This document shows, piece after piece, positions 7,398 through 45,728 of a stretch of DNA of 64,000 nucleotides. The translations under genes and the position numbers were made by a program. The DNA is from Vicinamibacterales bacterium (GTDB lineage: Bacteria; Acidobacteriota; Vicinamibacteria; Vicinamibacterales; CAVVIG01): positions 5,571 through 69,570 of the forward strand of contig DASRGT010000022.1 in assembly GCA_035650895.1 (NCBI GenBank). Direction: 5' to 3'. Position 1 is the stretch's first letter. Each line of letters begins with the position of its first letter. The notes below the pieces were generated by a model that worked only from the letters and a program-made list of their open reading frames with translations, ran no database searches and was not told where the DNA came from.

Positions 7398-8766
7398 GCG
7401 GCAGCAGGCTCGCCAGCCCGCGCAGCCCCATCTTCATTCCGAGATTGAACGCCGCCTTCGGCTCCGTGTGCGCGCGGAAGTCTGGATTGGCGCCGCCCGA
7501 CACGAACGTCTGCGGGTTCAGCGCCAAGTCGCCGTCGGCGAACGCCGGCCACAGCAGCTCGGCGACGGGCCGCCGGATGTTGTTGGGCGGGAGCGGCGCC
7601 GTCGACACCGCGACGAGCGTCAGGGCGACGCCGTACGCGGCGACCAGCGCGAGTGCGCCGCGCACCAGCCGCGGCACGGCCGTCCACAGCGCCGCGAGGC
7701 CGATGCACAGGAACGGAATCGCGGGCGACGCGTGGCGCGGTCCGTACGACCATCCACCTTCCCAGTACGCGTAGCTCGCGTTGAGCAGGACGTAGTAGAC
7801 CGCGATCACCGCGGCCGCGACCGCGACGAGCCGCCGCCGCACCAGGCACAAACCGACCGGCGCACACGCGAGAACCGGCGCGAGCGGCAGCAGCCCGCGG
7901 TACTCGCCGAACAGAATCCGGCGCAGCCGGATCATGCGCGGGAGGTCGACGCCGTAGAACCCCTGCTGCATGCCGACGTAGCTCGATTCGCTCGCGTAGC
8001 CGATGTGGAACGGCGAGCCGAAACACGCATACTGGTACGCCATCAGCACCGCCGCCGGGACGAGCGCGCCAATCGTCAGCGCGCCGACCACGCGCAGCCG
8101 CCGCGCGCGATCCAGCCGCCAGACGTGCACCAGCGTCAGCAGCGCGATCACCACGGCCGGGATCGCCGCCGGAAATTCGGACACGGTCGCCCAGCCGGCG
8201 CAGAGGCCCGCCATCGCTCCGCGGCGCCAGTCGCCATCGCCCGCGCGGCACGCGGAGGCGAAGGCGAGGACGAGCAGCGAGGCCGAAAACGCGTGGCCGA
8301 TGAAGATCGTGGCCAGCGTCCAGATCGGTGTGCCGAGGCCGAAGACGACGGCGGCGACGAGCGCCCCGGCCGCGGACGAGCCGAGCTCGACGCACAACGA
8401 AAACAGCGCGACGCCGGCCATCGCCGTGAACAGACCCGCCGTGAAGACGGTGGCGAGGTACGACAGCAGCGCGATGCCGGGATAGTCCTCCGAATCGACG
8501 CCGAGCGCCCGTGCCAGGGGGCGCGCGATCGCCACGATCGGCACCGCCGTCAGCGACAGGCCCGGCGCCTTGTCGGAGTAGTAGTGGCCGTGGTCGAACG
8601 CCTTGTCGCCGGTCGAGAGCTGATAGGGGTCGATGACAAAGGTGTGCTCGTTCGTGATCGCGCGCACCAGCGCGTACCGCGTGTTCTGGTTCCATCCGCC
8701 CGCCTGGTAGAAGTAGGCGTACGCGACGAACAGCAGCGCGAAGAGCGCCCAGTGCGTCCGGGTCAC
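7339..8766 (-). CDS. Large polytopic membrane protein, putative GT-C-type glycosyltransferase
   Basis: Real start taken as the GTG at 8766, which overlaps the flippase stop (GTGA). The track ORF 7339..9720 is over-extended. More than 10 hydrophobic helices. Loop motif 'HYYSDKAPGLS'. The GT-C assignment is inference. Confidence 0.65.
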   Translation of the reverse strand: MTRTHWALFALLFVAYAYFYQAGGWNQNTRYALVRAITNEHTFVIDPYQLSTGDKAFDHGHYYSDKAPGLSLTAVPIVAIARPLARALGVDSEDYPGIALLSYLATVFTAGLFTAMAGVALFSLCVELGSSAAGALVAAVVFGLGTPIWTLATIFIGHAFSASLLVLAFASACRAGDGDWRRGAMAGLCAGWATVSEFPAAIPAVVIALLTLVHVWRLDRARRLRVVGALTIGALVPAAVLMAYQYACFGSPFHIGYASESSYVGMQQGFYGVDLPRMIRLRRILFGEYRGLLPLAPVLACAPVGLCLVRRRLVAVAAAVIAVYYVLLNASYAYWEGGWSYGPRHASPAIPFLCIGLAALWTAVPRLVRGALALVAAYGVALTLVAVSTAPLPPNNIRRPVAELLWPAFADGDLALNPQTFVSGGANPDFRAHTEPKAAFNLGMKMGLRGLASLLPLMLTSAGCAFALRRSFRSR

Positions 8767-9971
8767 GCGTACCTTCGCAGTCCGGCCGCGAGGATCGCGA
8801 GGCTGACCGCTTCGCCGGCCACCGTCGCGCCCGCCGCGCCGACCGGCCCGTAGTGCGGAATGACGTACAGGTTCAGCCCCACGTTGACCGCCAGTCCGAC
8901 GAGGCCGGTCTGCAGCAGCAGCCGTTCGCGATCCACCGAAATGGCGATGGCGTGAAGAATCCAGATCGCGAACACCACCGGCAGCCCGACGACGAGGATG
9001 CGGAACGCGGCGGTCGCGGCGGCATAGTCGGCGCCGAACAGCACGACGAGCAGCGGCGTCGCGATCGCGAAGGCGACCAGCGCAACGGCAGCCCCGAGCG
9101 CCGCCGATCCCGAGACGCCGCGGATGGCGAGCAGTCGATGCTGTCGGCGATCGGTCGTGAACAGCGCCGACAGCCTCGGCGTCAACACCGTCGACAGCGC
9201 GAGCGCGGCATAGGTGAAGCCTTCGTAGATCCGGTAGGCCGCCGCGTACAGGCCTGTCTCCGCGTCCGTGCGCATCGATCCGAGCATCACGCCATCGACG
9301 TACGAGTACAGGTTCAGCACGACGAGAAAGAACCCGAGCGGCAGCGCCGTGCGGTGCAGCTCGCGCCAGACGCCGGCATCGTACGCGAAGCCGACGCCCC
9401 CGAGCCGGGTCTGCGTGACGACGAGCGCCAGCACGAGCGCGGCGCCGCGTGCGATCACGAACGCGATCGCCAGGCCGCGCAGCCCGGTGCCCATCATCAG
9501 CGCCGCGACCCCCACGACGAGGAGCAGAATCCGATCGGCGAGGACGACGATCGCGTCCCAGCCGAAGTGCTCGAGGCCCTGCAGCACGCCGCGGATCGTC
9601 AGCATGTAGGAGCGGAAGACGAGCGACCCGCCGATGAGATAGCACGCGAGCCGCACATCCCACTGCGGGCGCAGCAGGTTCGCCGTCACCACGAGCACCG
9701 CGAGCGCCGCGGTGGCCCACAACAGCTTGATCGCCAGCGCGTGGCGCAGCAGAAACGACGCGCGGGACTTGTCGCGCGCGACCGCGCGGATCGTCACCTG
9801 GTGCAGCCCGAAGTCCATCAGCGTCTCGAACACGCCGCCGAGGAGCAGCGCGAACGAGAACTTGCCGAGCTCGTCGACGCTGCCGAGCATGCGCGCGGCC
9901 GCGATGTAGAGCAGCAGCAGCAGCGCGGCGGTGCCCGCCGAGATCGTCGAGTAGAGGAAGTTGCGGATCAT
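8763..9971 (-). CDS. Wzx-like oligo/polysaccharide flippase (MOP superfamily)
   Basis: Internal ATG at 9971 ('MIRNFLYSTISAG..') overlapping the upstream GT4 stop (ATGA). About 12 TM helices. Typical Wzx/PST-family composition. Confidence 0.8.
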   Translation of the reverse strand: MIRNFLYSTISAGTAALLLLLYIAAARMLGSVDELGKFSFALLLGGVFETLMDFGLHQVTIRAVARDKSRASFLLRHALAIKLLWATAALAVLVVTANLLRPQWDVRLACYLIGGSLVFRSYMLTIRGVLQGLEHFGWDAIVVLADRILLLVVGVAALMMGTGLRGLAIAFVIARGAALVLALVVTQTRLGGVGFAYDAGVWRELHRTALPLGFFLVVLNLYSYVDGVMLGSMRTDAETGLYAAAYRIYEGFTYAALALSTVLTPRLSALFTTDRRQHRLLAIRGVSGSAALGAAVALVAFAIATPLLVVLFGADYAAATAAFRILVVGLPVVFAIWILHAIAISVDRERLLLQTGLVGLAVNVGLNLYVIPHYGPVGAAGATVAGEAVSLAILAAGLRRYA

Positions 9972-11170
9972 CGCGCCGGCGCCGCCAGCCGCTCGACGAG
10001 GGCGGCGTAGCGCTCGAGGAGCGCGTTCGCCTCGAACCGCTCGCGCGCGACGGCGTATCCGGCGCCGGCGATGCGCGCGCGCAGCGCGGGGTCGCCGAGC
10101 ATCCGCTCGATCGCGCGCGCCAGCGAGGCGGCCGATCGCGGCTCGTGCACGACGGCCGTCTGGCCGTCGACGCAGAAATCCCCGAGCCCGCCCACCGCCG
10201 ACGTGACGACCGGCACGCCGCTCGCCATCGCCTCGATGGCCGTGTTGCCGAGCGCCTCGAAGTGCGACGGCTGCACGAAGACGTCCGCCGCCCGGTAGAA
10301 GGGTGCCGGGTCGGGCGTGCTCCCCTCGAAGCGCACCGCGTCGCCCAGTCCGTGCGCCGCGACGTAGGCGCGCGCCGGCGCCCCGGCGTCCCACGCGTGC
10401 CCCGGCATATCGGGACCGACGAGGACGAGCAGGGCGTCGCCCCGATCGGCGATCCGCCATGCCTCGACGAGATCGTTGACGCCTTTCTCGACGCTGAGCC
10501 GCCCGACGAAGAGCACGATCGGCCGCTCCTGCGGCCATCCGAACCGCGCGCGGAGCAGCTCGCGTTCCCCCGGCTCGGGACGGCGGAAGCGCGCGATGTC
10601 GACGCCGTGGGGCAGGTACACCACGCGCTCGCGCGGCACGCCGGCGCGGATCGCTTCGCGCTCCAGATCCCGCCCGATGCAGACGATCGTGTCGGCCTGC
10701 TTGTAAATGGCGCGCACCGGTCCCCGCAGCAGGCGGGCGATCGCCGATTCGCGCGGCAGCCCCGACGTCGACTGCGCGTCGGCGCCCGCCAGCACGCCGG
10801 CGACCTCGCCCTGCGCGACGACCCGCTTGCGCATCAGGCGCGCCAGCGGGATGGCCGCCGCGCCGATCCCGCGGTAGTCGACGCACACCACGACGTCGTA
10901 CCGCGCGCGCGCCCTCACCATGCGCGCGGCGAGCGCCGGCAGCATCAGCCACTTCCCGCTGCCGCGGCGCGCGCCCGGCGGCGCGAGGCGGCGCACCGGC
11001 ACGCCGTCGATCAGCACGCGCTTCTTGTCGGTCGGCTCCACCTGCTTGGTGACGACCTCGACGCCGAAGCCGTGGGCGTGCAGGTATCGCACGAGCTGCC
11101 GCGCGTGCACTTCGACGCCGCCGACGACGGGGTGGTAGTAGGTCGTCACCACCAGCACGTTCGGCTTCAT
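9968..11170 (-). CDS. Glycosyltransferase family 4 (GT-B)
   Basis: 'MKPNVLVVTTYYHPVVGGVEVH', 'FVGRLSVEKG' and the 'PSHFEALGNTAIEAMASGVPVV' EX7E-type motif. The ATG at 11170 overlaps the upstream stop (ATGA). Confidence 0.85.
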   Translation of the reverse strand: MKPNVLVVTTYYHPVVGGVEVHARQLVRYLHAHGFGVEVVTKQVEPTDKKRVLIDGVPVRRLAPPGARRGSGKWLMLPALAARMVRARARYDVVVCVDYRGIGAAAIPLARLMRKRVVAQGEVAGVLAGADAQSTSGLPRESAIARLLRGPVRAIYKQADTIVCIGRDLEREAIRAGVPRERVVYLPHGVDIARFRRPEPGERELLRARFGWPQERPIVLFVGRLSVEKGVNDLVEAWRIADRGDALLVLVGPDMPGHAWDAGAPARAYVAAHGLGDAVRFEGSTPDPAPFYRAADVFVQPSHFEALGNTAIEAMASGVPVVTSAVGGLGDFCVDGQTAVVHEPRSAASLARAIERMLGDPALRARIAGAGYAVARERFEANALLERYAALVERLAAPAR

Positions 11171-12210
11171 CGAAGCACGGTCCGCGTGAGCAGCCGCCAG
11201 TACGCATCGAGCGTCCGCTCGTACGCGGTCTTCGCGCGCCTGAGCCACCCGCTGCCGATCAGATCGTCGCGCGCGACCATCGGCGCGCTGACGAGCAGTT
11301 CGCGATCAGGTCGACGCCGGATCCGCCGCGCCAGCGCCCGGTCGCGCGGCAGCGTCGGCAGCAGCGCGACGAGTCCGCCCAGCGCGCGGGCGTAGGTGAG
11401 CGCGTGCCCCTTGGCGGCCAGCACGGCGAACTGCACCGGTTCGTGGACGAGCAGGGCGGGCGCAATCGCCGCGATCGTGCGCAGCTCGTAATTCTTGAGG
11501 ATGAAATGCCAGCGGTTGCGAATCTGATAGTAGAAGAGCCACGCGCTGCGCGGACGGCTGTTGTGCAGCACGATCGCCTCGGGCAGCTCCCGGATCTTGT
11601 ACCCCGCCATCCTGATGCGATGCGTGAAGTCGCCGTCCTCCTTGCCGATGAAGTACCGCTCGTCGAACAGGCCGACGTCGATCGCCGCCTGCCGGTCGAG
11701 CAGCAGCGCGCAGGTGGGGGCGGCGCCGATGTCGAGCGGCTTCGGTCCACGTTCGTCCAGCGGCCGGTCCAGCCACGGGTTGACCGCCTCGCAGACGAAG
11801 TGCAGCGCCCCGCCCGCGTACTGGATCCGGTCCGGCCGGCCCGCGTGCACGACGATCGGGCTGCCGACCTTGATCGTCGGATCGGCGACCATCGCCGCGT
11901 GCAGCCGCTCGACGACGTCCGGGCGGATGCGGACGTCGGCATCCATCAGCAGCACGAACCGCTGCGTCGCCTCCGTGATGCCGACGTTGCGTCCCGGGCT
12001 CGGGCCGTCGTTTCGATCGAGGCGGCGCACGCGGATCGCCGGATGCGTCCGCGCCAGCCAGTCGGCGGTGCCGTCGCTGCTCGCGACGTCGACGAGGACG
12101 ATGCGGCCGGGCGGGCAGCCCGCGGCGAGCACGGAATCGATGGTCTCGGGAAGCGCGGGCAGGTTGTTGTGCGCGACAATCGCGACCCCGGTGTCCGACG
12201 GCCAGGTCAC
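11167..12210 (-). CDS. Glycosyltransferase family 2
   Basis: 'VAIVAHNN..', 'LVDVASSDGT', and 'LLMDADV' (DxD). GT2 (GT-A fold) pattern with a C-terminal membrane-associated helix region. Confidence 0.85.
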   Translation of the reverse strand: MTWPSDTGVAIVAHNNLPALPETIDSVLAAGCPPGRIVLVDVASSDGTADWLARTHPAIRVRRLDRNDGPSPGRNVGITEATQRFVLLMDADVRIRPDVVERLHAAMVADPTIKVGSPIVVHAGRPDRIQYAGGALHFVCEAVNPWLDRPLDERGPKPLDIGAAPTCALLLDRQAAIDVGLFDERYFIGKEDGDFTHRIRMAGYKIRELPEAIVLHNSRPRSAWLFYYQIRNRWHFILKNYELRTIAAIAPALLVHEPVQFAVLAAKGHALTYARALGGLVALLPTLPRDRALARRIRRRPDRELLVSAPMVARDDLIGSGWLRRAKTAYERTLDAYWRLLTRTVLR

Positions 12211-12232
12211 GGTCGACGGTCCATGGTCACGG

Positions 12233-13270
12233 TCATCTCGCGGCGGACACGAACCAGGCGCGGCCGCGGCCCGGCAGGCAGGTGAGGAACTTGCCGTTCA
12301 GCCGCATCAGGTGGAAGCGATCGCCGTGCGCGCGGACGCCGCGGCGGCGCAGCGGCTGCTCGGCGAAGCAGAGCACGTGGCCCGTCGCGTCGACCGACTC
12401 GCGCGCGATCTCGCCGGCGATCCCCCAGGGCATCGCGACGTGCGCGATCGTCTTGCCGAGGCGTGCGCCCAGGATCGCGCGCGCGTCGGCCAGTTCCGCG
12501 CGGATCGTCGAGCGGCGTTCGGCTTCCGACTCGAAGCGGCCCTGCGTTCCGTTCGCGACGTCGCGGAGTTCGCGCCGCCAGCCGGCGCGGCCGAAGAATT
12601 CCGCGCCGCCGTTCTCCGCGACGTGACGGCGGCACCGATCGGCGGCGGCCTCGTCCGCGTGGAAGCGCAGCGCGTCGGACATCCGCGACCGCCGCGGGTA
12701 GAGCGGCGTGCCGAGCGCGTCGGCTTCGATGGGCCGGTTGAGGAGCGGCTCGCGCGCGAACTGCGGCGACACGAAGTCCACGATCTCCGCACCGCTGAAG
12801 ATCATCGCGTGCGCGCGCGTGTGCGACTGGACGTCGAAGACGCCGCTCGATTCCAGCTCGCGCAGCTGCGCCCAGGTGACGAAGGGCGAGTCGGCGCCCT
12901 CGTCGGCCACGCGCGCCGGGATGGCGAACAGGACGGCGCGCATCCCGAACTGCTTCAGCAGCGGATATGCCACCTCGTACGCGCTCGACCACGCATCGTC
13001 GAAGGTGAGGGCGATGGAGCGCGGCGCGGGCCGGACACCGTCGATGACGAGGCGCGCCATCTCGTCGCAGGCGACGGTCCGGTAGCCGTTCTCGGCCAGA
13101 TAGCGCAGCCGCGGCTCGAGCCAGTCGCGCGTCACCTCGTGGAGGTGGAAGACGGGCAGCTGGTCGCCGACCGATCCGCCGAAGAGGAACGCCGGATAGC
13201 AGCCGGTGGCGAGATCGAGCACACCGCGCACGGGACCGCCTCGTTCGGCGAATGGAGGTCTCGCGGACAT
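12233..13270 (-). CDS. Polysaccharide deacetylase (NodB-homology domain)
   Basis: 'IALTFDDAWSS', 'FAIPA' and 'SHTRAH' motifs. Start placed at the ATG at 13270 ('MSARPPF') because the track start at 13348 would abut the divergent gene's ATG. Confidence 0.75.
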   Translation of the reverse strand: MSARPPFAERGGPVRGVLDLATGCYPAFLFGGSVGDQLPVFHLHEVTRDWLEPRLRYLAENGYRTVACDEMARLVIDGVRPAPRSIALTFDDAWSSAYEVAYPLLKQFGMRAVLFAIPARVADEGADSPFVTWAQLRELESSGVFDVQSHTRAHAMIFSGAEIVDFVSPQFAREPLLNRPIEADALGTPLYPRRSRMSDALRFHADEAAADRCRRHVAENGGAEFFGRAGWRRELRDVANGTQGRFESEAERRSTIRAELADARAILGARLGKTIAHVAMPWGIAGEIARESVDATGHVLCFAEQPLRRRGVRAHGDRFHLMRLNGKFLTCLPGRGRAWFVSAAR

Positions 13271-13348
13271 AGGGGAATCGATGACGAATATTGTAGTCTC
13301 CGCGTTAGAATATGCGCGCGATTGTGTCGCTTTTCTGACGGAGGGCAT

Positions 13349-14542
13349 ATGGCCGTTTCACGCCGCAGGTTCGTAGGGGGCATCGCCGCCGCGCTCGGGT
13401 ACCTGGGCGCCGGGCCCGAGCTGGATCTCGTCGCTCAGCAGGGCGGCGCCGGCGTGCCGGGCCAGCAGCGCGGCCGCGGCCCGCGTGCCGCGGTGGATCT
13501 CTCCAAGATTGCGAAGATCAACAACAACGAGAATCCGTACGGCGTCCCCCCGGTGGTCCGCACGGCCATGGAAGATCCCAAGGCGTGGGAATGGGCCAAC
13601 CGGTACGGCGCGCCAGACGGCGGACTGAACCAGGCGATTCAGGAGCTGCACGGCGTCAGCGCCGAGCACGTCATCCTCGGCTGCGGGTCCGGCGAGCTCC
13701 TCAGCTCCATCACGATCGCGATGTTGATCGCCGATCCGAAGAAGAAGGTGCTCGGCGTCAATCCGACCTACAACGATCCGTACTCCAAGGCGTCGCAGAT
13801 CGGACGCGAGACGATCCGCGTGCCGCTCAACAAGGACTACACGCAGAACATCCCGGCGATCATCGACATCGCGAACAAGCGCGCCGCCGAAATCGGGTTC
13901 ATCTACATCGTCAACCCGAACAACCCGACCGGGATGATCGTGCCGAAGGATCAGATCAAGCAGCTGCTCGACGGCATTCCCGCCGACATGCCGGTGCTGA
14001 TCGACGAGGCGTATCATCACTTCGTCGACAGCCCCGACTACGAATCGTCGATGAAGTACGTCCTCGAGGGACGCCACGTCATCGTCTGCCGGACCTTCTC
14101 GAAGATCGCCGCGCTTGCCGCCATGCGCCTCGGCTACGGCGTCGGCCATCCGGAGCTCATCAAACGCGTGCACACCTTCACGACGGGCAGCCAGTCGATC
14201 ACGGTGAAGTTCGGCGGCGCCGCGTCGCTCAAGGACACGGCCGGACAGGCCAGGACCAAAGCGCTCAACAAGCAGGTCCGCGACGACACGATCGCCAAGC
14301 TGAGGGCGATGGGCTACGAGGTGCTGCCGTCGGAGACCAACTTCTTCATGGTCGGCCTCAAGCGCGAGGTTAGCGAGGTCGCGTCCGAATTCCAGAAGCG
14401 CGACGTGCTCGTCGGCCGGCCGTTCCCGCCGATGACCAAGCATCTGCGCGTGTCGGTCGGAACGCAGGCCGAGATGGACAAGTTCGTGGCCGCGTTCAAG
14501 GAGATCATGGCGACGCCGGCGAAAGCCACCGCCGGCGCGTAA
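13349..14542 (+). CDS. Class I/II PLP-dependent aminotransferase (HisC-like) with an N-terminal twin-arginine (Tat) signal
   Basis: GGAGGG RBS 5 nt upstream of the ATG. 'MAVSRRRFVGGIAAALGYLGAG' is a Tat motif. 'INNNENPYG', 'NPNNPTG' and the 'TFSKIAALAAMRLGY' PLP-Lys motif are present. Only the last 397 codons of track ORF 11561..14542 are real. Confidence 0.8.
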   Translation: MAVSRRRFVGGIAAALGYLGAGPELDLVAQQGGAGVPGQQRGRGPRAAVDLSKIAKINNNENPYGVPPVVRTAMEDPKAWEWANRYGAPDGGLNQAIQELHGVSAEHVILGCGSGELLSSITIAMLIADPKKKVLGVNPTYNDPYSKASQIGRETIRVPLNKDYTQNIPAIIDIANKRAAEIGFIYIVNPNNPTGMIVPKDQIKQLLDGIPADMPVLIDEAYHHFVDSPDYESSMKYVLEGRHVIVCRTFSKIAALAAMRLGYGVGHPELIKRVHTFTTGSQSITVKFGGAASLKDTAGQARTKALNKQVRDDTIAKLRAMGYEVLPSETNFFMVGLKREVSEVASEFQKRDVLVGRPFPPMTKHLRVSVGTQAEMDKFVAAFKEIMATPAKATAGA

Positions 14543-14561: not shown

Positions 14562-14585
14562 GGGCGGTGACCGCGGTCACCGCCC
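14562..14585. terminator. Perfect 24-nt GC-rich palindrome between convergent genes (candidate bidirectional terminator hairpin)
   Basis: GGGCGGTGACCGCGGTCACCGCCC lies between the stop at 14542 (+) and the stop at 14598 (-). There is no U-tract. Confidence 0.45.
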
Positions 14586-14597
14586 GGCCCGTCCGCG

Positions 14598-15137
14598 TCA
14601 CCGCTTCCGCTGCTGGATCTGCGCGAGGAAGAACTCCTTCAGCCGTTCGTTCGTCAGCCCGAGCTCCGTCGCTTCGTTCAACGCCTTCTCGGTGTCCCAC
14701 CCGTCGACGATGGTCCGTTTCATGAGCCACATCCCGGCGGCCCTTCCACCGCCCGCTCAATGGATGAACGCCGGCTGTACGCCCGGCGCGGTGATCGTCT
14801 TGAGGAAGGTGTCGACCGCCGCCGGATCGGGCGCCGACGCGCTGAACGGGATGTGATAGTACGGGATGCCGGCCGCCTTCGCCGCGGCGACGTTCGCCTC
14901 GATGTCGGCGCCGGGCTCGGTTGCCAGGCGCAGGTTGATGATCGACGCATAACCCATTTTGTGGATTTCCGCGATCGCGGTCGGCGTAATCGCCCCCGCG
15001 CACGCGACGGTCGACTCGACTTTCGCGAAGTTCCTGATCCCCGGCACCTCCTGCCGGACCACCTGCGCCGTCGCCGCGACGGCCATCACGCCGGCCGCGA
15101 CCGCGGCCAGCGCCAGCTGCGACATCTCTGGTTGCAC
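14598..15137 (-). CDS. Periplasmic DUF442/TIGR01244-type (PTP-fold, CX4R) sulfurtransferase/phosphatase-like protein, interrupted by an in-frame TGA (14757..14759) at the catalytic Cys position. It is either a selenocysteine candidate or a recent pseudogene.
   Basis: AAGGAGGT RBS 7 nt upstream of the GTG at 15137. Signal peptide 'VAATAQ|V'. The track ORF stops at '..PAFIH*'. The same frame then continues as 'AGGGRAAGMWLMKRTIVDGWDTEKALNEATELGLTNERLKEFFLAQIQQRKR*', which reconstitutes the family motif H-[C/U]-x-x-G-x-R. Confidence 0.6.
14736..14753 (-). other. Hairpin directly 3' of the in-frame UGA (candidate SECIS-like element)
   Basis: On the mRNA: UGA GCG GGCGG-UGGAAGGG-CCGCC. That is a 5 G-C pair stem and an 8-nt loop with G at loop position 2. 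The flanking CAU..AUG can extend a lower stem. It sits closer to the UGA than in the E. coli fdhF model. Confidence 0.25.
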
Positions 15138-15196
15138 GCCCGCACCTCCTTCGACCGTTACCGTGTCGAACGCGTAGTTATTCTATGATGTGACCC

Positions 15197-17029
15197 GTGT
15201 CCCCGGCGCGAGTCGTCGCCGCGGTGCTGCTGTTCCTTGTGCTCGCCGCGGCACTGTCGGTCGACGTCGTCAAGACGAACCCGAACAAGAGCGACGAAGC
15301 GACCTACGTGATGATGGCGCTGAGCGCCGCGTACGATCACGACCTCGCCTACCAGCGCCGCGATCTCGAACGCTACATGGGCCTGTACCGCTGGGGCCCT
15401 GACGGCATCTTCCTCAAGCGCGGCAAACAGCTGCACCTCCGGGTCGGCGGCGGATTGCCGTTCGTCCACCTGGCCAAGACGCCGGACCGGCAGCCCGATC
15501 GTCTCTTCTTCGGCAAGGCCTTCATCTATTCCGTCGCGGCGGCGCCGTTCGTGCGCCTCTTCGGCCTGAACGGGATGCTGGTCTTCAACGTCCTGCTCGC
15601 ATTCCTCGTCTGTGTCTGCGCCTACAGGTTTCTCGCCGTCCAGTCGGGGCCGCTCGCGTCGCTCGTTTTCGCGCTCGCCTTCGTCGGCGCGACGTGCGTG
15701 CCGGTGTATCTCGTGTTCCTCACGCCGGAGATGTTCCACTTCGCGCTCGTCTTCGTCGCGTACTTCCTCTGGCTGTACAAGGAAGTCCTGCCGGAGGACG
15801 CGCCGTCGTGGTTTCGGCGCGGGTGGACCGACGTCGCGGCCGCCATCCTGCTCGGCATCGTCACCTACTCGAAGCCGACGCATGCGCTGCTCGTCGCGCC
15901 GCCGGTCCTCTGGGCGTTCTGGCGCCGCCGCTTCGCCGTCGGCATCTCGTTCGGCGTCGCGGCGGTCGCGGTCGCCGCAGCGTTGTTCGGCGTCAACGCG
16001 CTGGTGACGGGGGAGTTCAACTACCAGGGCGGCGACCGCCGCGAATGCGTCGCGCGGTTCCCGTTCGACGGCACACCCGATCCCTGGGACTCCGCGCGCT
16101 GCCTCACGATGGCGACCGACGATGCGGACACGCAGAACGTCTTCACCGATTTCCGCAGCCGGCTGGCGCACAACGTCGAATATTTCTTCGTCGGACGGCA
16201 CTTCGGCTTCGTTCCGTATTTCTTTCCCGGAGTCGTCGCGATCCTGCTGTGGCTGGCGTCGGGGGAGCGCGCGCGGCCGTGGCGCGGCCTGACGCTCGCG
16301 GCCGTCGCGGCATCCGCGCTGGCGCTGCTCGTCTTCGCGCCGTTCACGTGGAGCGGCGGCGGCGGACCGTCGGGCAACCGCTACTTCATGAGCCTCTACG
16401 CGCCGCTGTTCTTCCTGACGCCGCCGCTCTCGTCCACGCTCCCGGGCCTCGTGGCCTGGCTCGGCGGGGCGCTGTTCACGGCGAAGATGCTGACCGATCC
16501 GTTCGGCGCGGCGAAGCACCCCAACGACATCACCGCGAAGGGATTCGCACGGCGGCTGCCGGTCGAGATCACGATGGCCAACGACCTCCCGATCATGCTC
16601 GAAGGGCCGCGCGCGCACTCCTGGTTCCACGACGTGCTGCTGTACTTCCTCGACGAGCACGCCTACAATCCGGATCCGCCCGACCCGCAGGGCGACACCT
16701 GGCTGTGGATCGCCGGCGATGGCCGCGCCGACATCCTGATGCGCTGCGAGTGGCCGATCGATCACCTGACGATCACCGCGGATTCGCCGATCGCCACCAC
16801 CTTCGTCGTTTCCGCGGGCGCAGAGCAGGCGACCATCCCGATCCCGCGCGGACGGCCGGTCACCTTCGACGTGCCCGCGTCGGGCGTGCGCGACTATCGC
16901 AGCTGGGCGTACCTCCTGACGGCGCGATCCACCGAAGGGTTCACGCCGCGGCTGCTCGATCCCGAATCGACCGACGCCCGCAACCTCGGCGTCCGGATCA
17001 AGTTCACCGCCGTGCCGCGCACGCCATGA
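15197..17029 (+). CDS. Polytopic membrane protein, putative GT-C glycosyltransferase (ArnT/PMT-like)
   Basis: GTG start. N-terminal TM helix followed by an acidic loop 'KSDEATYVMMALS' (a DE motif as in GT39/GT83). Multiple TM helices. About 200-aa C-terminal soluble domain. Confidence 0.7.
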   Translation: MSPARVVAAVLLFLVLAAALSVDVVKTNPNKSDEATYVMMALSAAYDHDLAYQRRDLERYMGLYRWGPDGIFLKRGKQLHLRVGGGLPFVHLAKTPDRQPDRLFFGKAFIYSVAAAPFVRLFGLNGMLVFNVLLAFLVCVCAYRFLAVQSGPLASLVFALAFVGATCVPVYLVFLTPEMFHFALVFVAYFLWLYKEVLPEDAPSWFRRGWTDVAAAILLGIVTYSKPTHALLVAPPVLWAFWRRRFAVGISFGVAAVAVAAALFGVNALVTGEFNYQGGDRRECVARFPFDGTPDPWDSARCLTMATDDADTQNVFTDFRSRLAHNVEYFFVGRHFGFVPYFFPGVVAILLWLASGERARPWRGLTLAAVAASALALLVFAPFTWSGGGGPSGNRYFMSLYAPLFFLTPPLSSTLPGLVAWLGGALFTAKMLTDPFGAAKHPNDITAKGFARRLPVEITMANDLPIMLEGPRAHSWFHDVLLYFLDEHAYNPDPPDPQGDTWLWIAGDGRADILMRCEWPIDHLTITADSPIATTFVVSAGAEQATIPIPRGRPVTFDVPASGVRDYRSWAYLLTARSTEGFTPRLLDPESTDARNLGVRIKFTAVPRTP

Positions 17030-18642
17030 CGCCGCGGCGAGAGCTGGGGCTCGTGCTGCTCGCGAGCGCCCTGCTCACGATCGCGCTGACCTATCCGCTC
17101 GCGTTCCGGCTCGGCGCCATCGGACGCGTCGACAACGCCGACGGGCAGTTCTCGATCTGGAACGTGGCGTGGGTGGCGCGCACGATCGGCGTGTCGCCGG
17201 CGCACCTGTTCGACGCGAACATCTTCTATCCGAACACCGGAACGCTCGCGTACTCGGAGAGCAACCTCGGCGCCGGCGTGGTCGCGGCGCCGGTCTACTG
17301 GCTGACGCGCAACCCGTTCGCGGCGCACAACGCCGCGGTGCTGTTCGCGTTCTTCCTCAGCGGCATCGCGATGTTCTTCCTCGCGCGGCACCTGACGCAC
17401 GATCCGCGCGCGGCCGCCGTTGCCGCGATCGGCTACGCGTTCTGTCCGTACGTCTACGCGAGGACGTCGCACATCCAGCTCCTGATGATCGGCGGGCTGC
17501 CGTTGGTCCTGCTCGCGCTGCACCGGCTCGCCGAGCGTCCGTCGGCTGGCCGCGGCGCCGCGCTGGGGCTGGCGATGGGGCTGCAGGCGCTGTTCTGCGG
17601 CTACTACGGCATTTTCGCCATCCTCATCGTCGGGTACGGCGTGCTGACGCTCGCCACCGTCCGCCGGTTGTGGACCGACCGCCGATTCTGGGCGGGGCTC
17701 GGCGCCGGCGCGCTCGTCTCGCTGGCGATCGTCGTTCCCGCGTTTCTGCCGTACGTGCGGCTGCAGGGACACGGCTTCGGGCGCACCCTCGAGGCGGCGG
17801 CGTCGTTCTCGGCGAACTGGAGCGCCTACCTCGCGAGCTCGTCGCACGCGCACGTGTGGATGCTGTCGGTGATCCCTCGGCCGAGCGAGTCGTTGTTTCC
17901 CGGATTCGTCGTGCTGGCGTGCGGCGTGGCCGGCGCGGCGATCGCGCGCCACGATCGCCGCGGCGAGCGGCTGTGGCTCTACGGCGGGCTCGGCGTCCTG
18001 TCGTGCTGGGCGTCGTTCGGACCGCGCGCGAAGTTCTACAGCGTGTTGTACGACCTGATTCCGGTCTTCACCTGGATGCGCGCGCCGGCCCGATTCGGTC
18101 TGCTGGTCACGCTCGCGCTGTGCGTGCTCGCCGCGGTCGCGGTGTCACGCTGGCTGCCGCGCACGCCGGCCGGCAACGCCCTCGCGATCGCGCTCGCCCT
18201 CGTCACTGCGGCCGAGCTGTCGACCACGTGGCCGATGCGTGAGGTCGATCAGGTGGAGCCGGTGTACCGCGTGCTCGCGCGGCTCGATCCGGGACCGGTG
18301 ATCGAAATGCCGTTCTGGTATCTCGAACCGATGTTTCCCCGGCACACCTATTACATGCTGCAGTCGACGCAGCACTGGATGCCGCTCGTCAACGGCTACA
18401 GCGACTACCTGCCGCCGGACTTCCTCGAGCACGTGATGACGCTGGCCGCGTTCCCGAGCCGCGAATCGCTGCGACTGCTCGGACCGGAACACGTGCGCTA
18501 CGCGATCATCCATCGCTACTGGTACGGCGACGATACGTGGGCGACCGTCGTGCCGCGGATGCGGGAGCTCGCGCCGTACCTGAAGCTGCTGTACGAAGGC
18601 GAAGGGACGCAGCTTTACGAGATCGTCGGGTTTCCGCCGTGA
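17026..18642 (+). CDS. Large polytopic membrane protein (GT-C/polymerase-like, unassigned)
   Basis: The ATG at 17026 overlaps the upstream stop (ATGA). 'RVDNADGQFSIWNVAWV' loop, more than 10 TM helices and a C-terminal soluble domain. Only the 3' part of track ORF 15694..18642 is real. Confidence 0.7.
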   Translation: MTPRRELGLVLLASALLTIALTYPLAFRLGAIGRVDNADGQFSIWNVAWVARTIGVSPAHLFDANIFYPNTGTLAYSESNLGAGVVAAPVYWLTRNPFAAHNAAVLFAFFLSGIAMFFLARHLTHDPRAAAVAAIGYAFCPYVYARTSHIQLLMIGGLPLVLLALHRLAERPSAGRGAALGLAMGLQALFCGYYGIFAILIVGYGVLTLATVRRLWTDRRFWAGLGAGALVSLAIVVPAFLPYVRLQGHGFGRTLEAAASFSANWSAYLASSSHAHVWMLSVIPRPSESLFPGFVVLACGVAGAAIARHDRRGERLWLYGGLGVLSCWASFGPRAKFYSVLYDLIPVFTWMRAPARFGLLVTLALCVLAAVAVSRWLPRTPAGNALAIALALVTAAELSTTWPMREVDQVEPVYRVLARLDPGPVIEMPFWYLEPMFPRHTYYMLQSTQHWMPLVNGYSDYLPPDFLEHVMTLAAFPSRESLRLLGPEHVRYAIIHRYWYGDDTWATVVPRMRELAPYLKLLYEGEGTQLYEIVGFPP

Positions 18643-19598
18643 TGGCTGCGTGACACGTACACGGCGGCGCCCGACAGCGAGAAGATCATGATGAGCGCCT
18701 GGCCGACCAGCGACATCAGGATCGCGCCCTCGACCGGCTGGCCGATCCGCGCAAAGTAGAGCGAGAACGTCGCCTCGCGGACGCCGAATCCGCTCACCGA
18801 GATGGGCAGCATCTGCACGACGAACGAGATCGGCACGATCACCGCGAGGTCGGCGAACCGGATCGTCGCGCCCAGCGCGATGATCACACCGTAGTAGAAC
18901 ACCACCATCGTGGCCTGCACGAAGATCGCGGCGCCGAAGCACTGCGCGAGGCGGACCGGATGGCGCCGGAACCGCGACAGGATCTGCGTCAGGTTGTCGA
19001 TCCGGCCGCCGACCCACTCCGGATGGATGACCGACAGCGGCCGCAGCAGGCGGCCGAAGCCGTCGGGCACGAGGACGGCGGGCGCCGACGCCGCCGCGCC
19101 GACGAAGAACCCGACCCACAACCACGCCGGCCAGATCGGCACCGCCGCCGGGTGCAGCGCGCCGGCCGCGGTCGCGCCGATCGCGGCGATCAGCACGAGC
19201 GCGATCACGCCCATGACGCGATCGGCCAGAATCACCGTCGTCGCGACCGTCTTCGACTTGGTGTACTTCGCCGTGTCGGCGATGCGGAAGAAGTCGCCGC
19301 CGATGTTGCTCGGCAGGAAGTTGTTGAAGAACAGCGCGACGAGATACGACCCGATCAGCGTCGTCGCCGGCACCCGCACCTCCTGCGCTTCGAGCAGGAC
19401 GTGCCATCGCCACAGGCTCGCCGCGACGTTGATGCAATAGAGCGCGAGCGCCGCGGCGAGCCACGCCGGCGACGCGTGCTTCGCGCTGTTCCAGAGGCGC
19501 GCCGCATCGATCCGCGAGAACAGGAATGCGAGCAGAACGATGCTGACCGAGATTTTCAGCGCCAGGATGACGGACCGGCGGCCGGTAGAGGTGCTCAA
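18615..19598 (-). CDS. UPF0104 / LPG-synthase-TM 'flippase-like' membrane protein
   Basis: About 8 TM helices. 'FFNNFLPSNIGGDFFR' motif typical of the family. TTG start as given by the track, so the start is uncertain. Confidence 0.7.
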   Translation of the reverse strand: MSTSTGRRSVILALKISVSIVLLAFLFSRIDAARLWNSAKHASPAWLAAALALYCINVAASLWRWHVLLEAQEVRVPATTLIGSYLVALFFNNFLPSNIGGDFFRIADTAKYTKSKTVATTVILADRVMGVIALVLIAAIGATAAGALHPAAVPIWPAWLWVGFFVGAAASAPAVLVPDGFGRLLRPLSVIHPEWVGGRIDNLTQILSRFRRHPVRLAQCFGAAIFVQATMVVFYYGVIIALGATIRFADLAVIVPISFVVQMLPISVSGFGVREATFSLYFARIGQPVEGAILMSLVGQALIMIFSLSGAAVYVSRSHHGGNPTIS

Positions 19599-19646
19599 GG
19601 AAACGGGTTAGGGTACTACGAATTATGCGAAAATCACAGGAACCCT

Positions 19647-20858
19647 TTGCGCATCCTGATGATTGCGCCCGAGCCGTTCTTCGAACCGCGCGGGACGCCG
19701 TTCAGCGAATACCACCGCATCCGCGCGCTGACCGCGCTCGGCCATGACGTCGACCTCGTGACCTATCCGTTCGGCCAGCCGGTGTCGATGCCGGGGCTGC
19801 GGATCTTCCGGTGCGCGAGGCCGCCGTTCATCTCGCGCGTGAAGATCGGACCGTCGGCCGCCAAGCTTCCGCTCGACGCGATGCTGACGCTCACCGCCGT
19901 GCGCCGCGCAGCCGCCGAGCGATACGACGCGATCCATTCGCACGAGGAAGGCGGCGTCATCGGCGCGGCGCTGTCGGCGATCCTGCGCGTGCCGCACCTC
20001 TACGACATGCACTCGAGCCTGCCGCAGCAGCTGACGAACTTCGCGTTCAGCGGATCGCGGATCCTCCGCGCCGTGTTCGTCGCGCTCGAGCGGTTCATGA
20101 TCCGCCGATCCCGCGCGGTGATCGTCATCTGTCCCTCGCTCGAAGAAACGGTCCGCGCGATCGCGCCGGACGCGCGAACGGTGCTGATCGAGAACGCGCC
20201 GGGCTCGGTCGAGGAACAGGCCACCTCGGAGCAGGCAGCGGCGGTCCGCGCCTCGCTCGGCCTCGCCGCATCGACGCCGATCGTGCTCTACACCGGTACG
20301 TTCGAGGCGTACCAGGGGCTCGATCTTCTGTTCGATGCCTGGGCCGTCGCGCGCCGCCGCGTGCCGTCCGACGCGCGGCTCGTCCTCGCCGGCGGCAAAC
20401 CGGATCAGATTGCGGCAGCGCGGGAGCTGGCCCGCCGCGCCGGCGTCGACGCGTCGACCGTGTTCGCGGGCGAGCGGCCGGCATCCGAGATCCCCGCCTA
20501 TCTGCTCGCGGCGGACGCGCTCGTCTCGCCGCGGTCGCGCGGCACCAACACGCCGCTCAAGATCTATCAATATCTGCGGTCGGGGAAGCCGATCGTCGCG
20601 ACGCGCCTGCTGACGCACACGCAGGTCCTCGACGACGACACCGCGATGCTGACCGACGCGACTGCCGAGGCGTTCGGCGCCGGCATCGCCGCCGCGCTCA
20701 CGGACCGCGCGCGCGCCGCCGCGATCGGCCGCCAGGCGCAGCGCCTGGCCGAGACGAAATACAGCTACGAGGCGTACCTGGAGAAGACGCGGCAGGCGTG
20801 CGCGGCGCTCTTCGAGGCGCGCCGTCCGCACGCCCAGCCGGCGAAGGACGTCGCGTGA
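19647..20858 (+). CDS. Glycosyltransferase family 4
   Basis: An in-frame TTG at 19647 gives the classic N-terminus 'MRILMIAPEPFFEPRGTP'. The ATG at 19659 is an alternative start. C-terminal 'SPRSRGTNTPLKIYQYLRSGKPIV' GT-B motif. Confidence 0.8.
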   Translation: MRILMIAPEPFFEPRGTPFSEYHRIRALTALGHDVDLVTYPFGQPVSMPGLRIFRCARPPFISRVKIGPSAAKLPLDAMLTLTAVRRAAAERYDAIHSHEEGGVIGAALSAILRVPHLYDMHSSLPQQLTNFAFSGSRILRAVFVALERFMIRRSRAVIVICPSLEETVRAIAPDARTVLIENAPGSVEEQATSEQAAAVRASLGLAASTPIVLYTGTFEAYQGLDLLFDAWAVARRRVPSDARLVLAGGKPDQIAAARELARRAGVDASTVFAGERPASEIPAYLLAADALVSPRSRGTNTPLKIYQYLRSGKPIVATRLLTHTQVLDDDTAMLTDATAEAFGAGIAAALTDRARAAAIGRQAQRLAETKYSYEAYLEKTRQACAALFEARRPHAQPAKDVA

Positions 20859-45261: not shown

Positions 45262-45728
45262 TGTTCGCAGCGAGCCAGACGATCGTCCGCCTTCGCTCTT
45301 CGGACCGTGGCGCGATCAGGCTTCCTCCGGGGAGCTTGCGCGCGCGCTCGAAGCGCCGCGGGGGCGGGAGGAAAGTCCGAACTCCGCAGGGCAGTGCGCC
45401 GGGTAACGCCCGGTCGGGGCAACTCGAAGGACAGTGGCACAGAAAACACACAGCCGAACCCGCCGGCGTCGCGCAAGCGGCAATGACGGGTGGCAATGGT
45501 GAAAAGGTGCGGTAAGAGCGCACCGCGCGCGTGGCAACACGCGTGGCAGGCAAAACCCCGCACGGAGCAAGACCAAATAGGGAAGCTTGGACGGCCCGTC
45601 CGCATGGCTTCCGGGTCGGTCGCTTGATCCCGCCAGCGATGGCGGGGCTAGAGGAATGATCGTCACCCGCCGTCGCCTTCACGGGCGGCGGCGCGGGACA
45701 GAATTCGGCTTACGGCTCGCTGCGAACA
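45262..45728 (+). ncRNA. rnpB: Bacterial RNase P RNA (type A)
   Basis: Universal motifs 'GGAGGAAAGTCCGAAC', 'ACAGAAAACA', 'GGTAAGAGCGCACC' and 'ACAGAATTCGGCTTA'. A 15-bp P1 helix forms between TGTTCGCAGCGAGCC (45262..45276) and GGCTCGCTGCGAACA (45714..45728). Confidence 0.9.

Follow-up and report, generated by a model that had tools for sequence, protein, structure and literature searches.

A DUF442-family gene with an in-frame TGA

This study concerns a 64-kb stretch of DNA (64,000 nucleotides of contig DASRGT010000022.1; hereafter, the window) from a metagenome-assembled genome (MAG) of a Vicinamibacterales bacterium, and a single 179-codon gene on its minus strand (14598..15137) that is split by an in-frame TGA at 14757..14759. 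The gene starts with GTG at 15137, runs through 126 codons to the in-frame TGA, and continues through 52 sense codons to a second TGA at 14598..14600, which serves as the stop. The junction around the in-frame TGA reads ...PAFIH-TGA-AGGGRAAGMW... in translation. Comparative sequence evidence indicates that this TGA is very probably a selenocysteine (Sec) codon, which would make the gene a genuine Sec-encoding gene for a putatively exported DUF442 protein with a protein tyrosine phosphatase (PTP) fold. Sec at the catalytic Cys had been proposed earlier from the letters of the window alone (the sequence-only reading), and re-reading the minus strand returned its frame of 126 codons, TGA and 52 codons, with both peptides exactly as it had quoted them. 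A six-frame scan of the window identified no other in-frame TGA with coding signal (high G+C content at third codon positions) on both sides. TGA is the normal stop codon of 26 of the 47 genes in the window; thus, the genetic code has not been reassigned.

The two expression signals named in the sequence-only reading, a strong ribosome-binding site and a signal peptide, are recognisable in the sequence: AGGAGG lies 7 nt before the GTG, and the hydrophobic N-terminus ends in A-T-A/Q (the slash marks the cleavage point). The N-termini of relatives likewise consist of an n-region with Arg or Lys, a hydrophobic core, and an A-x-A/Q motif. Judging from these sequence features, the DUF442-type protein is predicted to be exported to the periplasm.

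Family matches were computed with Cys placed at the TGA of the 179-aa product. PF04273 (BLH_phosphatase/DUF442) matched residues 40-140, across the junction, with 43.2 bits against a gathering score of 26.1, and TIGR01244 matched residues 37-166 with 50.3 bits, under its curated cut-off of 85.85. NF040641 (Blh) matched with 46.2 bits against a cut-off of 625, which is below membership. The protein is a distant relative of TIGR01244 and NF040641 Blh, and is not a member of either model. Both the PF04273 and the TIGR01244 matches cross the TGA; the sequence-only reading would have been abandoned by its own account had the 52 downstream codons failed to align to the family. The truncated 126-aa product alone matches PF04273 with 34.1 bits, and no match to PF00581 (rhodanese) was found at E-values up to 1.

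In alignments with homologues, the UGA falls in the Cys column, exactly at the catalytic Cys of the DUF442 CX4R loop where it had been located before. This Cys, the invariant one of the H-C-x4-R motif, is present in 14 of 14 full-length homologues of alignment A1 and makes up at least 90% of the column in alignment A4. A search against solved structures aligned the UGA column with catalytic Cys132 of the periplasmic phosphatase TpbA (PDB 4R0S/4R0T; the residue is Ser in the C132S mutant 4R0T), and also matched the DUF442 prototype 2F46. An AlphaFold2 (AF2) model was made for a Cys ortholog that is 83% identical to the window protein (mean predicted local distance difference test score, pLDDT, 85.7; predicted template modelling score, pTM, 0.80). 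In this model, a strand at 122-125 (AFIH) leads into the P-loop, which begins at the Cys/Sec position and is followed by a helix at 129-143. The pLDDT falls below 50 at residues 1-20, the predicted signal-peptide region. Foldseek ranked the DUF442 structure 3GXH first among its best structure matches, which also included 2F46 (DUF442), the archaeal PTPs Tk-PTP and SsoPTP, and TpbA. The P-loop is of the CX4R type as in DUF442 and not of the CX5R type as in TpbA, with the Arg offset by one in an ungapped alignment. Outside the P-loop, Cys46 (TVACAGA) is invariant across all Sec and Cys forms of the subfamily.

Conservation of the TGA among relatives

The same 126-aa truncated product is recorded in three near-identical sequences from NCBI, JGI, and ENA. 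An ENA contig (L001) and a contig of a second NCBI assembly (L002) carry the same TGA, with one nucleotide differing in 621; these near-identical copies represent one population. As L001 and L002 are independent contigs, a base-call error is ruled out. Among more distant relatives, TGA occupies the same codon in 27 of 27 loci from GTDB species representatives (64-87% amino acid identity; mostly Vicinamibacterales or Acidobacteriota MAGs) and in 80 of 80 fetched metagenome contigs, with 327 relatives detected. The inspection of close relatives that the sequence-only reading had called for thus came out in its favor, while the same TGA in more than 100 diverged relatives refutes the alternative that it had kept in reserve, namely that TGC had recently mutated to TGA or that a base was miscalled. 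The TGA-form family is found mainly in Vicinamibacterales (Acidobacteria subdivision 6), is common in soil Acidobacteria, and is abundant in soil metagenomes.

Every public gene call examined cuts the protein before the active site. In a search with the pre-TGA fragment, the best 120 protein clusters all end early, at 118-157 aa and nearly all at 123-126 aa. Records of these short calls in NCBI, JGI, ENA, and Logan carry the name 'sulfur transferase domain-containing protein' or 'PTP superfamily phosphohydrolase (DUF442 family)'.

Several copies depart from the general pattern. TGA-form copies occur on contigs binned as Acidimicrobiia (L019, VFZL01000005.1, a 180-kb contig of a lake MAG with the loop AGGSR), and also in bins assigned to Gemmatimonadaceae (a 1.9-kb contig) and Terriglobia (L003 and L021 are among these loci). 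These copies may reflect mis-binning or horizontal transfer. Two Microflora Danica long-read MAGs (L028 and L029) contain frameshifts before the TGA and an intact frame after it; the frameshifts are probably assembly indel errors rather than signs of pseudogenes. The metagenome contig Ga0114129_10367730 (L058) bears several lesions, namely the junction PACIH-TGA-AGGGRD and a C>A substitution by which the hairpin described below is weakened to about -6.8 kcal/mol, and is either a decaying copy or a low-quality contig.

Translation past the TGA

The frame after the TGA is open for 52-53 codons in every complete relative and ends in the same ...QQRKR C-terminus. Substitution rates were estimated by the Nei-Gojobori method for all pairs of 26 clean species-level sequences. 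The 101 codons upstream of the TGA gave a synonymous rate (dS) of 0.91 and a nonsynonymous rate (dN) of 0.151 (dN/dS 0.166), and the 52 codons downstream gave a dS of 0.84 and a dN of 0.128 (dN/dS 0.153). When the first 15 downstream codons were left out, dS was 1.09, dN was 0.176, and dN/dS was 0.162. Purifying selection acts alike on the codons before and after the TGA, and a dN/dS of 0.15 at saturating dS means that the downstream part is no dead tail.

The eight codons between the TGA and the next ATG encode the remainder of the P-loop, AGGGRAAG. In the 28-species alignment (A3), the variable sites of this interval comprise six third positions, one synonymous AGA>CGA change, and one Gly>Ser change. 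Since this variation is almost purely synonymous, the eight codons are translated in this frame and re-initiation is excluded.

Pairing of TGA and Cys forms

A neighbour-joining tree was constructed from 87 distinct TGA forms and 117 Cys forms. All 87 TGA forms fall in a single clade of 92 tips. The only Cys forms within this clade are five sequences, P0001, the P0002/3/4 group, and P0006; the 112 others lie outside. The DNA of P0001, P0003, and P0006 has TGC at the site and retains the hairpin sequence, a pattern that Zhang et al. (2006) described as a 'remnant SECIS' (selenocysteine insertion sequence) in Sec-to-Cys revertants. TGC also occupies the UGA column in L110-L115. In the simplest history that these sequences suggest, Cys was exchanged for Sec once, at the base of the clade, and the Sec form was then maintained vertically for a long time, with at least 2-3 reversions.

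A conserved hairpin downstream of the TGA

Consensus folding with RNAalifold returned a 7-bp hairpin, GRGCCGC-(CGGGAU)-GUGGCUC, that starts 13 nt past the UGA. In the window (14724..14743), this hairpin has a folding energy of -9.6 kcal/mol and its apical loop begins 20 nt past the UGA. All seven pairs are present in 28 of 28 species, the sole variable stem position being A or G opposite U. In a wider set, 114 of 115 sequences keep the hairpin intact, L058 being the exception. In a GCA-GGU variant class, both changes lie in the loop and an extra A-U pair closes a GGUA tetraloop. Across the sequences, the stem spans 7-8 bp and the energies range from -9.6 to -12.8 kcal/mol. The published bacterial SECIS (bSECIS) model describes a 4-16 bp stem, a loop of 3-9 nt with G[G/U] at its start, a distance of 16-37 nt from the UGA to the loop, and an energy no higher than -7.5 kcal/mol; the window hairpin, with its spacing of 20 nt, lies within these limits on all four counts. 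Outgroup Cys forms have no such hairpin. When the same pairing was forced on them, energies of only -1.0 to -6.3 kcal/mol were obtained, with no GG in the loop. A search against Rfam at gathering and permissive thresholds returned nothing relevant near the UGA.

The hairpin is located in the zone of the gene where synonymous sites vary least. Normalised synonymous entropy is 0.26 in codons -1..+12 as compared with 0.53 elsewhere (Mann-Whitney p=0.0017), and the codon is invariant in 4 of 10 columns of this stretch but in only 5 of 99 outside it (Fisher p=0.004). Of all 12-column stretches in the gene, -3..+11 varies least. The codons that are fixed here are rare in this genome (His CAT 18%, Arg AGA/AGG 4.4%, and Lys AAA 17%).

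Other foldings of the region were considered and rejected. The GC-rich hairpin that had been suggested as a SECIS in the sequence-only reading, GGCGG-UGGAAGGG-CCGCC at 14736..14753, does exist 3 nt past the UGA; however, it is not the conserved element, as its closing pair is lost in 6 of 28 species and its loop lies 8 nt past the UGA, outside the range of 16-37 nt. The second hairpin drawn there, with a UGGCU loop, proved to be merely the 3' arm of the conserved hairpin at 14724..14743. Pairs of the upper helix in the single-sequence minimum free energy (MFE) fold are disrupted in as many as 8 of 28 species.

The His codon directly before the UGA is CAT in 115 of 115 sequences (14757-14762, minus strand), CAT being a minority His codon (18%). 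In the RNA, CAU-U-GAGC can pair with GCUC-AUG (14721-14730), forming an invariant alternative helix that would sequester the UGA and compete for the 3' arm of the hairpin. This helix may represent a two-state structure or a termination-context effect.

Indications of selenocysteine use in the lineage

All flanking sequences of the relatives were subjected to the same scan for in-frame TGA codons, and one clear case was identified. An Acidobacteria MAG contig (L020) carries a TGA-form DUF442 ortholog, 70% identical to that of the window, which adjoins a second TGA-interrupted gene (L020:1153-2973, minus strand; TGA at L020:1858-1860). This neighbor reads ...LLVTWASW-TGA-GCRLDLP... in translation. 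Its product is matched by NF041054, a curated selenoprotein model (ResA-like WAxxUGC motif-containing protein; E=7.8e-83), and the TGA occupies the U position of that motif. A hairpin, CCUGCCA-GGU-UGGCAGG, lies 21 nt downstream of the TGA, and at least 95 homologues have Cys at the TGA column (WASWCGC). An N-run gap and a partial paralogue are located upstream of this gene. A homology search with this WAxxUGC protein for selenoproteins labelled as Vicinamibacterales returned Cys homologues only, and the few with a named source were mostly labelled as Planctomycetes.

The literature describes selenoproteins in Acidobacteria; Occallatibacter riparius is reported to have three selenoprotein genes, and Acidobacteriota MAGs to encode [NiFe] hydrogenases of the Sec type. 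Nothing specific was listed among the top-ranked matches of a literature search that combined selenocysteine with Vicinamibacter or Luteitalea.

Interpretation of the in-frame TGA

The sequence-only proposal of Sec at the catalytic Cys is strongly supported by more than 100 relatives with TGA, a downstream dN/dS of 0.15, Cys homologues, and a conserved hairpin. We infer from these comparisons that the inserted residue would be Sec, delivered by SelB. When the UGA reaches the ribosome, the hairpin 13 nt downstream (loop C-G-G-G-A-U or G-G-U-A) would be located at the mRNA entrance, where it could act as a bacterial SECIS and recruit SelB-GTP-Sec-tRNA(Sec). The 52 codons past the UGA would then be translated and supply the remainder of the P-loop and three C-terminal helices.

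Several observations weigh against this interpretation. Searches with E. coli SelA, SelB, and SelD (tblastn) and with ARAGORN identified no selA, selB, selD, or tRNA-Sec in 500 kb of sequence, comprising the 64-kb window and approximately 440 kb of relatives' fragments, none of which is a whole genome; the window holds no tRNA gene of any kind according to ARAGORN. The bSECIS criteria are permissive at the 70% GC content of the window: 8.6% of its 1204 UGA triplets pass the model, and 4.7% pass with stems of at least 7 bp. The single-sequence fold is unexceptional (z=-0.15), the MFE fold of the window sequence favors a competing structure, and the hairpin appears in the MFE fold of 60 of 115 sequences. 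There is no double-sided covariation in the hairpin across the 28-species alignment, because the sequence, constrained both as protein and as RNA, hardly varies. In view of the permissive model and the z-score, the weight of the case for the hairpin lies in its conservation. Finally, the TIGR01244 score is under the curated cut-off, and it is the Pfam domain and the fold, rather than an equivalog match, that underlie the assignment of sulfurtransferase function.

It is conceivable, if improbable, that the UGA is read through in a programmed manner with a residue other than Sec, namely Cys (by a selC*-like tRNA-Cys or an acidobacterial allo-tRNA with a UCA anticodon, possibly with a SelB-like factor) or Trp by near-cognate decoding. 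The evidence proves translation through the UGA and not the identity of the residue, and no Sec machinery was found in the genome fragments searched. In addition, Mukai et al. (2017) described acidobacterial allo-tRNAs as perhaps nonsense suppressors and selC* tRNA-Cys(UCA) as decoding opal codons as Cys in other phyla. However, selC* was placed by these authors in Firmicutes, Thermodesulfobacteria, Nitrospirae, and Proteobacteria, not in Acidobacteria, and a general suppressor conflicts with the use of TGA as the stop of more than half of the window genes. Both the position of the hairpin and its G-G loop signature are those of a SelB-dependent SECIS, the site is a catalytic Cys, where Sec is typical, and a recognised selenoprotein with a canonical SECIS is located on the contig of a relative (L020). 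Moreover, if Cys were inserted, nothing would keep TGA over TGC across an order-level clade. Natural, order-wide recoding of this kind, directed by a SECIS to a residue other than Sec in aerobic soil bacteria, strikes us as equally improbable.

The remaining explanations assume that translation stops at the TGA or that the TGA is not real. A single C>A change turns TGC into TGA, every public gene caller stops there, and the 126-aa product still matches PF04273, all of which would agree with a pseudogene or with a truncated protein as the real product. Such a product would be missing three helices of the fold as well as the entire P-loop. In a dead tail, dN/dS would be expected to approach 1, with stops and frameshifts accumulating; the 52 codons are instead open in every complete relative at a dN/dS of 0.15, and the TGA is fixed across 27 species and 87 distinct sequences of one clade. 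We therefore consider a pseudogene or a truncated product very unlikely and contradicted by the data. A split protein, in which translation stops at the TGA and re-initiates at the ATG at 14732 to give a 126-aa exported piece and a 44-aa cytoplasmic piece, is slightly less probable still. An ATG-started ORF of 44 aa (14598..14732) is called as a separate gene in the ENA contig, and a Shine-Dalgarno-like GGAAGG is located 9 nt upstream of the ATG, which is preceded by a purine-rich GGAAG(A/G)G. Nevertheless, the eight codons between the TGA and the ATG vary almost only synonymously and encode the invariant AGGGRAAG, and the two pieces would land in different compartments. As the window is derived from a MAG, in which single-base errors occur, a sequencing or assembly artefact was also considered; as over 100 diverged sequences share this TGA, in assemblies of separate projects and platforms (NCBI, ENA, JGI, and Logan), its probability is negligible and we regard it as already refuted.

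Assuming that Sec is inserted, the enzyme is most likely an exported sulfane-sulfur (or possibly selenium) transferase of the rhodanese type, which would operate through a Se-S (selenopersulfide) intermediate with Cys46 as a candidate partner thiol for residue 127. Phosphatase or oxyanion-reductase chemistry is possible.

Comparison with known proteins

The window protein shares its domain and PTP fold with the Cys-type DUF442 (PF04273) proteins, which include the N-terminal domain of Blh in Xylella and Agrobacterium, the DUF442 domain fused to sulfide:quinone oxidoreductase (SQR) in Cupriavidus pinatubonensis, 2F46 (NMA1982), and 3GXH. In these domains the P-loop is likewise of the short H-C-x4-R type and its nucleophile lies in the same column; however, they use Cys, where the window gene has a UGA that would encode Sec. 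Rhodanese-type sulfurtransferase activity through this Cys has been shown for Blh of Xylella, and through Cys94 for the SQR-fused DUF442 of Cupriavidus. Unlike these systems, the window gene encodes a stand-alone, putatively exported protein with a predicted signal peptide, which is not fused to SQR or a persulfide dioxygenase and is not located in an sqr-pdo or bigR operon. TpbA of Pseudomonas aeruginosa (PDB 4R0S and 2M3V) is the best sequence match among solved structures (E=4e-4), and is periplasmic, as predicted here, with the same fold. It differs in having a CX5R loop (C-K-H-G-N-N-R) with a Cys nucleophile, as opposed to the CX4R loop found here, and is only about 21% identical. TpbA is a dual-specificity tyrosine phosphatase, and such activity is not implied for DUF442 proteins.

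Among selenoproteins, the rhodanese-like forms (PF00581, forms 1-5, including TsoB; PMC13188914) are also predicted sulfurtransferases with Sec in place of the persulfide-forming catalytic Cys, and were identified by the same logic of Sec/Cys pairs and bSECIS elements. They belong to PF00581, whereas the protein described here is a PTP-like DUF442 protein with a CX4R loop from a soil Vicinamibacterales lineage. The arsenate reductase selenoproteins (TIGR00014, UxxS; NF041106, UxxC) also have Sec where a nucleophilic Cys would attack an oxyanion or enter into a covalent intermediate. They constitute a different family; their models did not match here, and motif and context differ. The ResA-like WAxxUGC protein (NF041054) on the L020 contig likewise has a TGA at a conserved Cys column and a hairpin with a G-G loop 20-21 nt downstream, but this redox protein has a thioredoxin fold, is absent from the window, and belongs to a family that is already curated as selenoproteins.

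The sequence-only reading had taken DUF442 not to be a listed selenoprotein family, and this was correct. The 119 families of prokaryotic selenoproteins catalogued in May 2026 (PMC13188914, all of Table 1) include no PF04273, TIGR01244, DUF442, BLH, phosphatase, or PTP-fold entry; closest in function are the arsenate reductases and the rhodanese-like forms (PF00581), both of which are other families. NCBIfam release 20 contains no selenoprotein model for the protein, with two non-selenoprotein models as the only matches. The nine new selenoprotein families of deep-Sep exclude this one, and no paper pairing 'selenoprotein' with 'DUF442' was found in a literature search. We are confident, short of certainty, that this is a previously unlisted selenoprotein family, the mechanism of which (a UGA, a SECIS within the coding sequence, and a Sec/Cys pair) is entirely standard.

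Vicinamibacterales are among the most abundant soil bacteria and are largely aerobic. Sec use is usually tied to anaerobes in the literature, and most known selenoproteins are thioredoxin-fold redox proteins. If the assignment is true, the prokaryotic selenoproteome gains an exported family with a PTP-like fold and a CX4R P-loop. With Sec as the inserted residue, the protein would be the first PTP-fold selenoenzyme, exported to an oxidising periplasm in a lineage that ranks among the most abundant in soil, and the finding bears on selenium demand in soils. A systematic annotation error is also exposed, and a family-specific model would correct hundreds of records. The natural Sec/Cys pair with its recent revertants offers a test of the contribution of selenium to persulfide or phosphoryl transfer chemistry.

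Features and surroundings of the gene

The coordinates of the gene and its elements are given in Table 1. The inverted repeat that lies after the second TGA, between the true stop and a convergent aminotransferase gene, has no T-run and was not called by a terminator scan that required one. It is probably a transcript-end hairpin shared by the convergent genes.

Table 1. Elements of the TGA-interrupted gene and its immediate flanks in the window.
Feature	Position	Strand	Basis
Complete gene for a DUF442/PTP-fold protein (predicted to be exported), GTG start, proposed Sec-UGA = codon 127	14598..15137	-	Frame, family matches, and conservation
Shine-Dalgarno sequence AGGAGG, 7 nt before GTG	15145..15150	-	Read from sequence
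Predicted Sec-type (general secretion) signal peptide, aa 1-24, hydrophobic core, A-T-A/Q cleavage motif	15066..15137	-	Inferred from sequence
Cys46, motif TVACAGA, possible resolving or partner thiol	15000..15002	-	Invariant in alignments A1 and A4; role inferred
In-frame UGA, proposed Sec codon, residue 127, catalytic nucleophile position	14757..14759	-	TGA conservation; TGC in Cys forms
P-loop U-A-G-G-G-R, CX4R type, between strand AFIH and helix	14742..14759	-	Alignments, structure matches, and AF2 model
Candidate bacterial SECIS: 5' arm GGGCCGC (14743..14737), loop CGGGAU (14736..14731), 3' arm GUGGCUC (14730..14724)	14724..14743	-	RNAalifold and conservation
Hairpin GGCGG-UGGAAGGG-CCGCC, put forward by the sequence-only reading; overlaps and competes with 14724..14743	14736..14753	-	Unsupported as SECIS
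Perfect 11-bp inverted repeat GGGCGGTGACC-GC-GGTCACCGCCC, 12 nt past the true stop	14562..14585	-	Read from sequence

Neighboring genes differ among the five contexts compared (the window/L001 and loci with Cys forms), and the context therefore gives no clue to function. In the ENA copy, the flanks (window positions 8763-13357 and 15194-20858) encode glycosyltransferases, a polysaccharide deacetylase, a polysaccharide biosynthesis protein of the Polysacc_synt type, and large DUF6311/PMT_2-like membrane proteins. These surroundings look like an exopolysaccharide or cell-envelope locus, without an obvious tie to sulfur or selenium metabolism. Elsewhere in the window, at 45327-45727 on the plus strand, lies a class A bacterial RNase P RNA (RF00010, 232 bits), the sole Rfam family detected at the gathering threshold.

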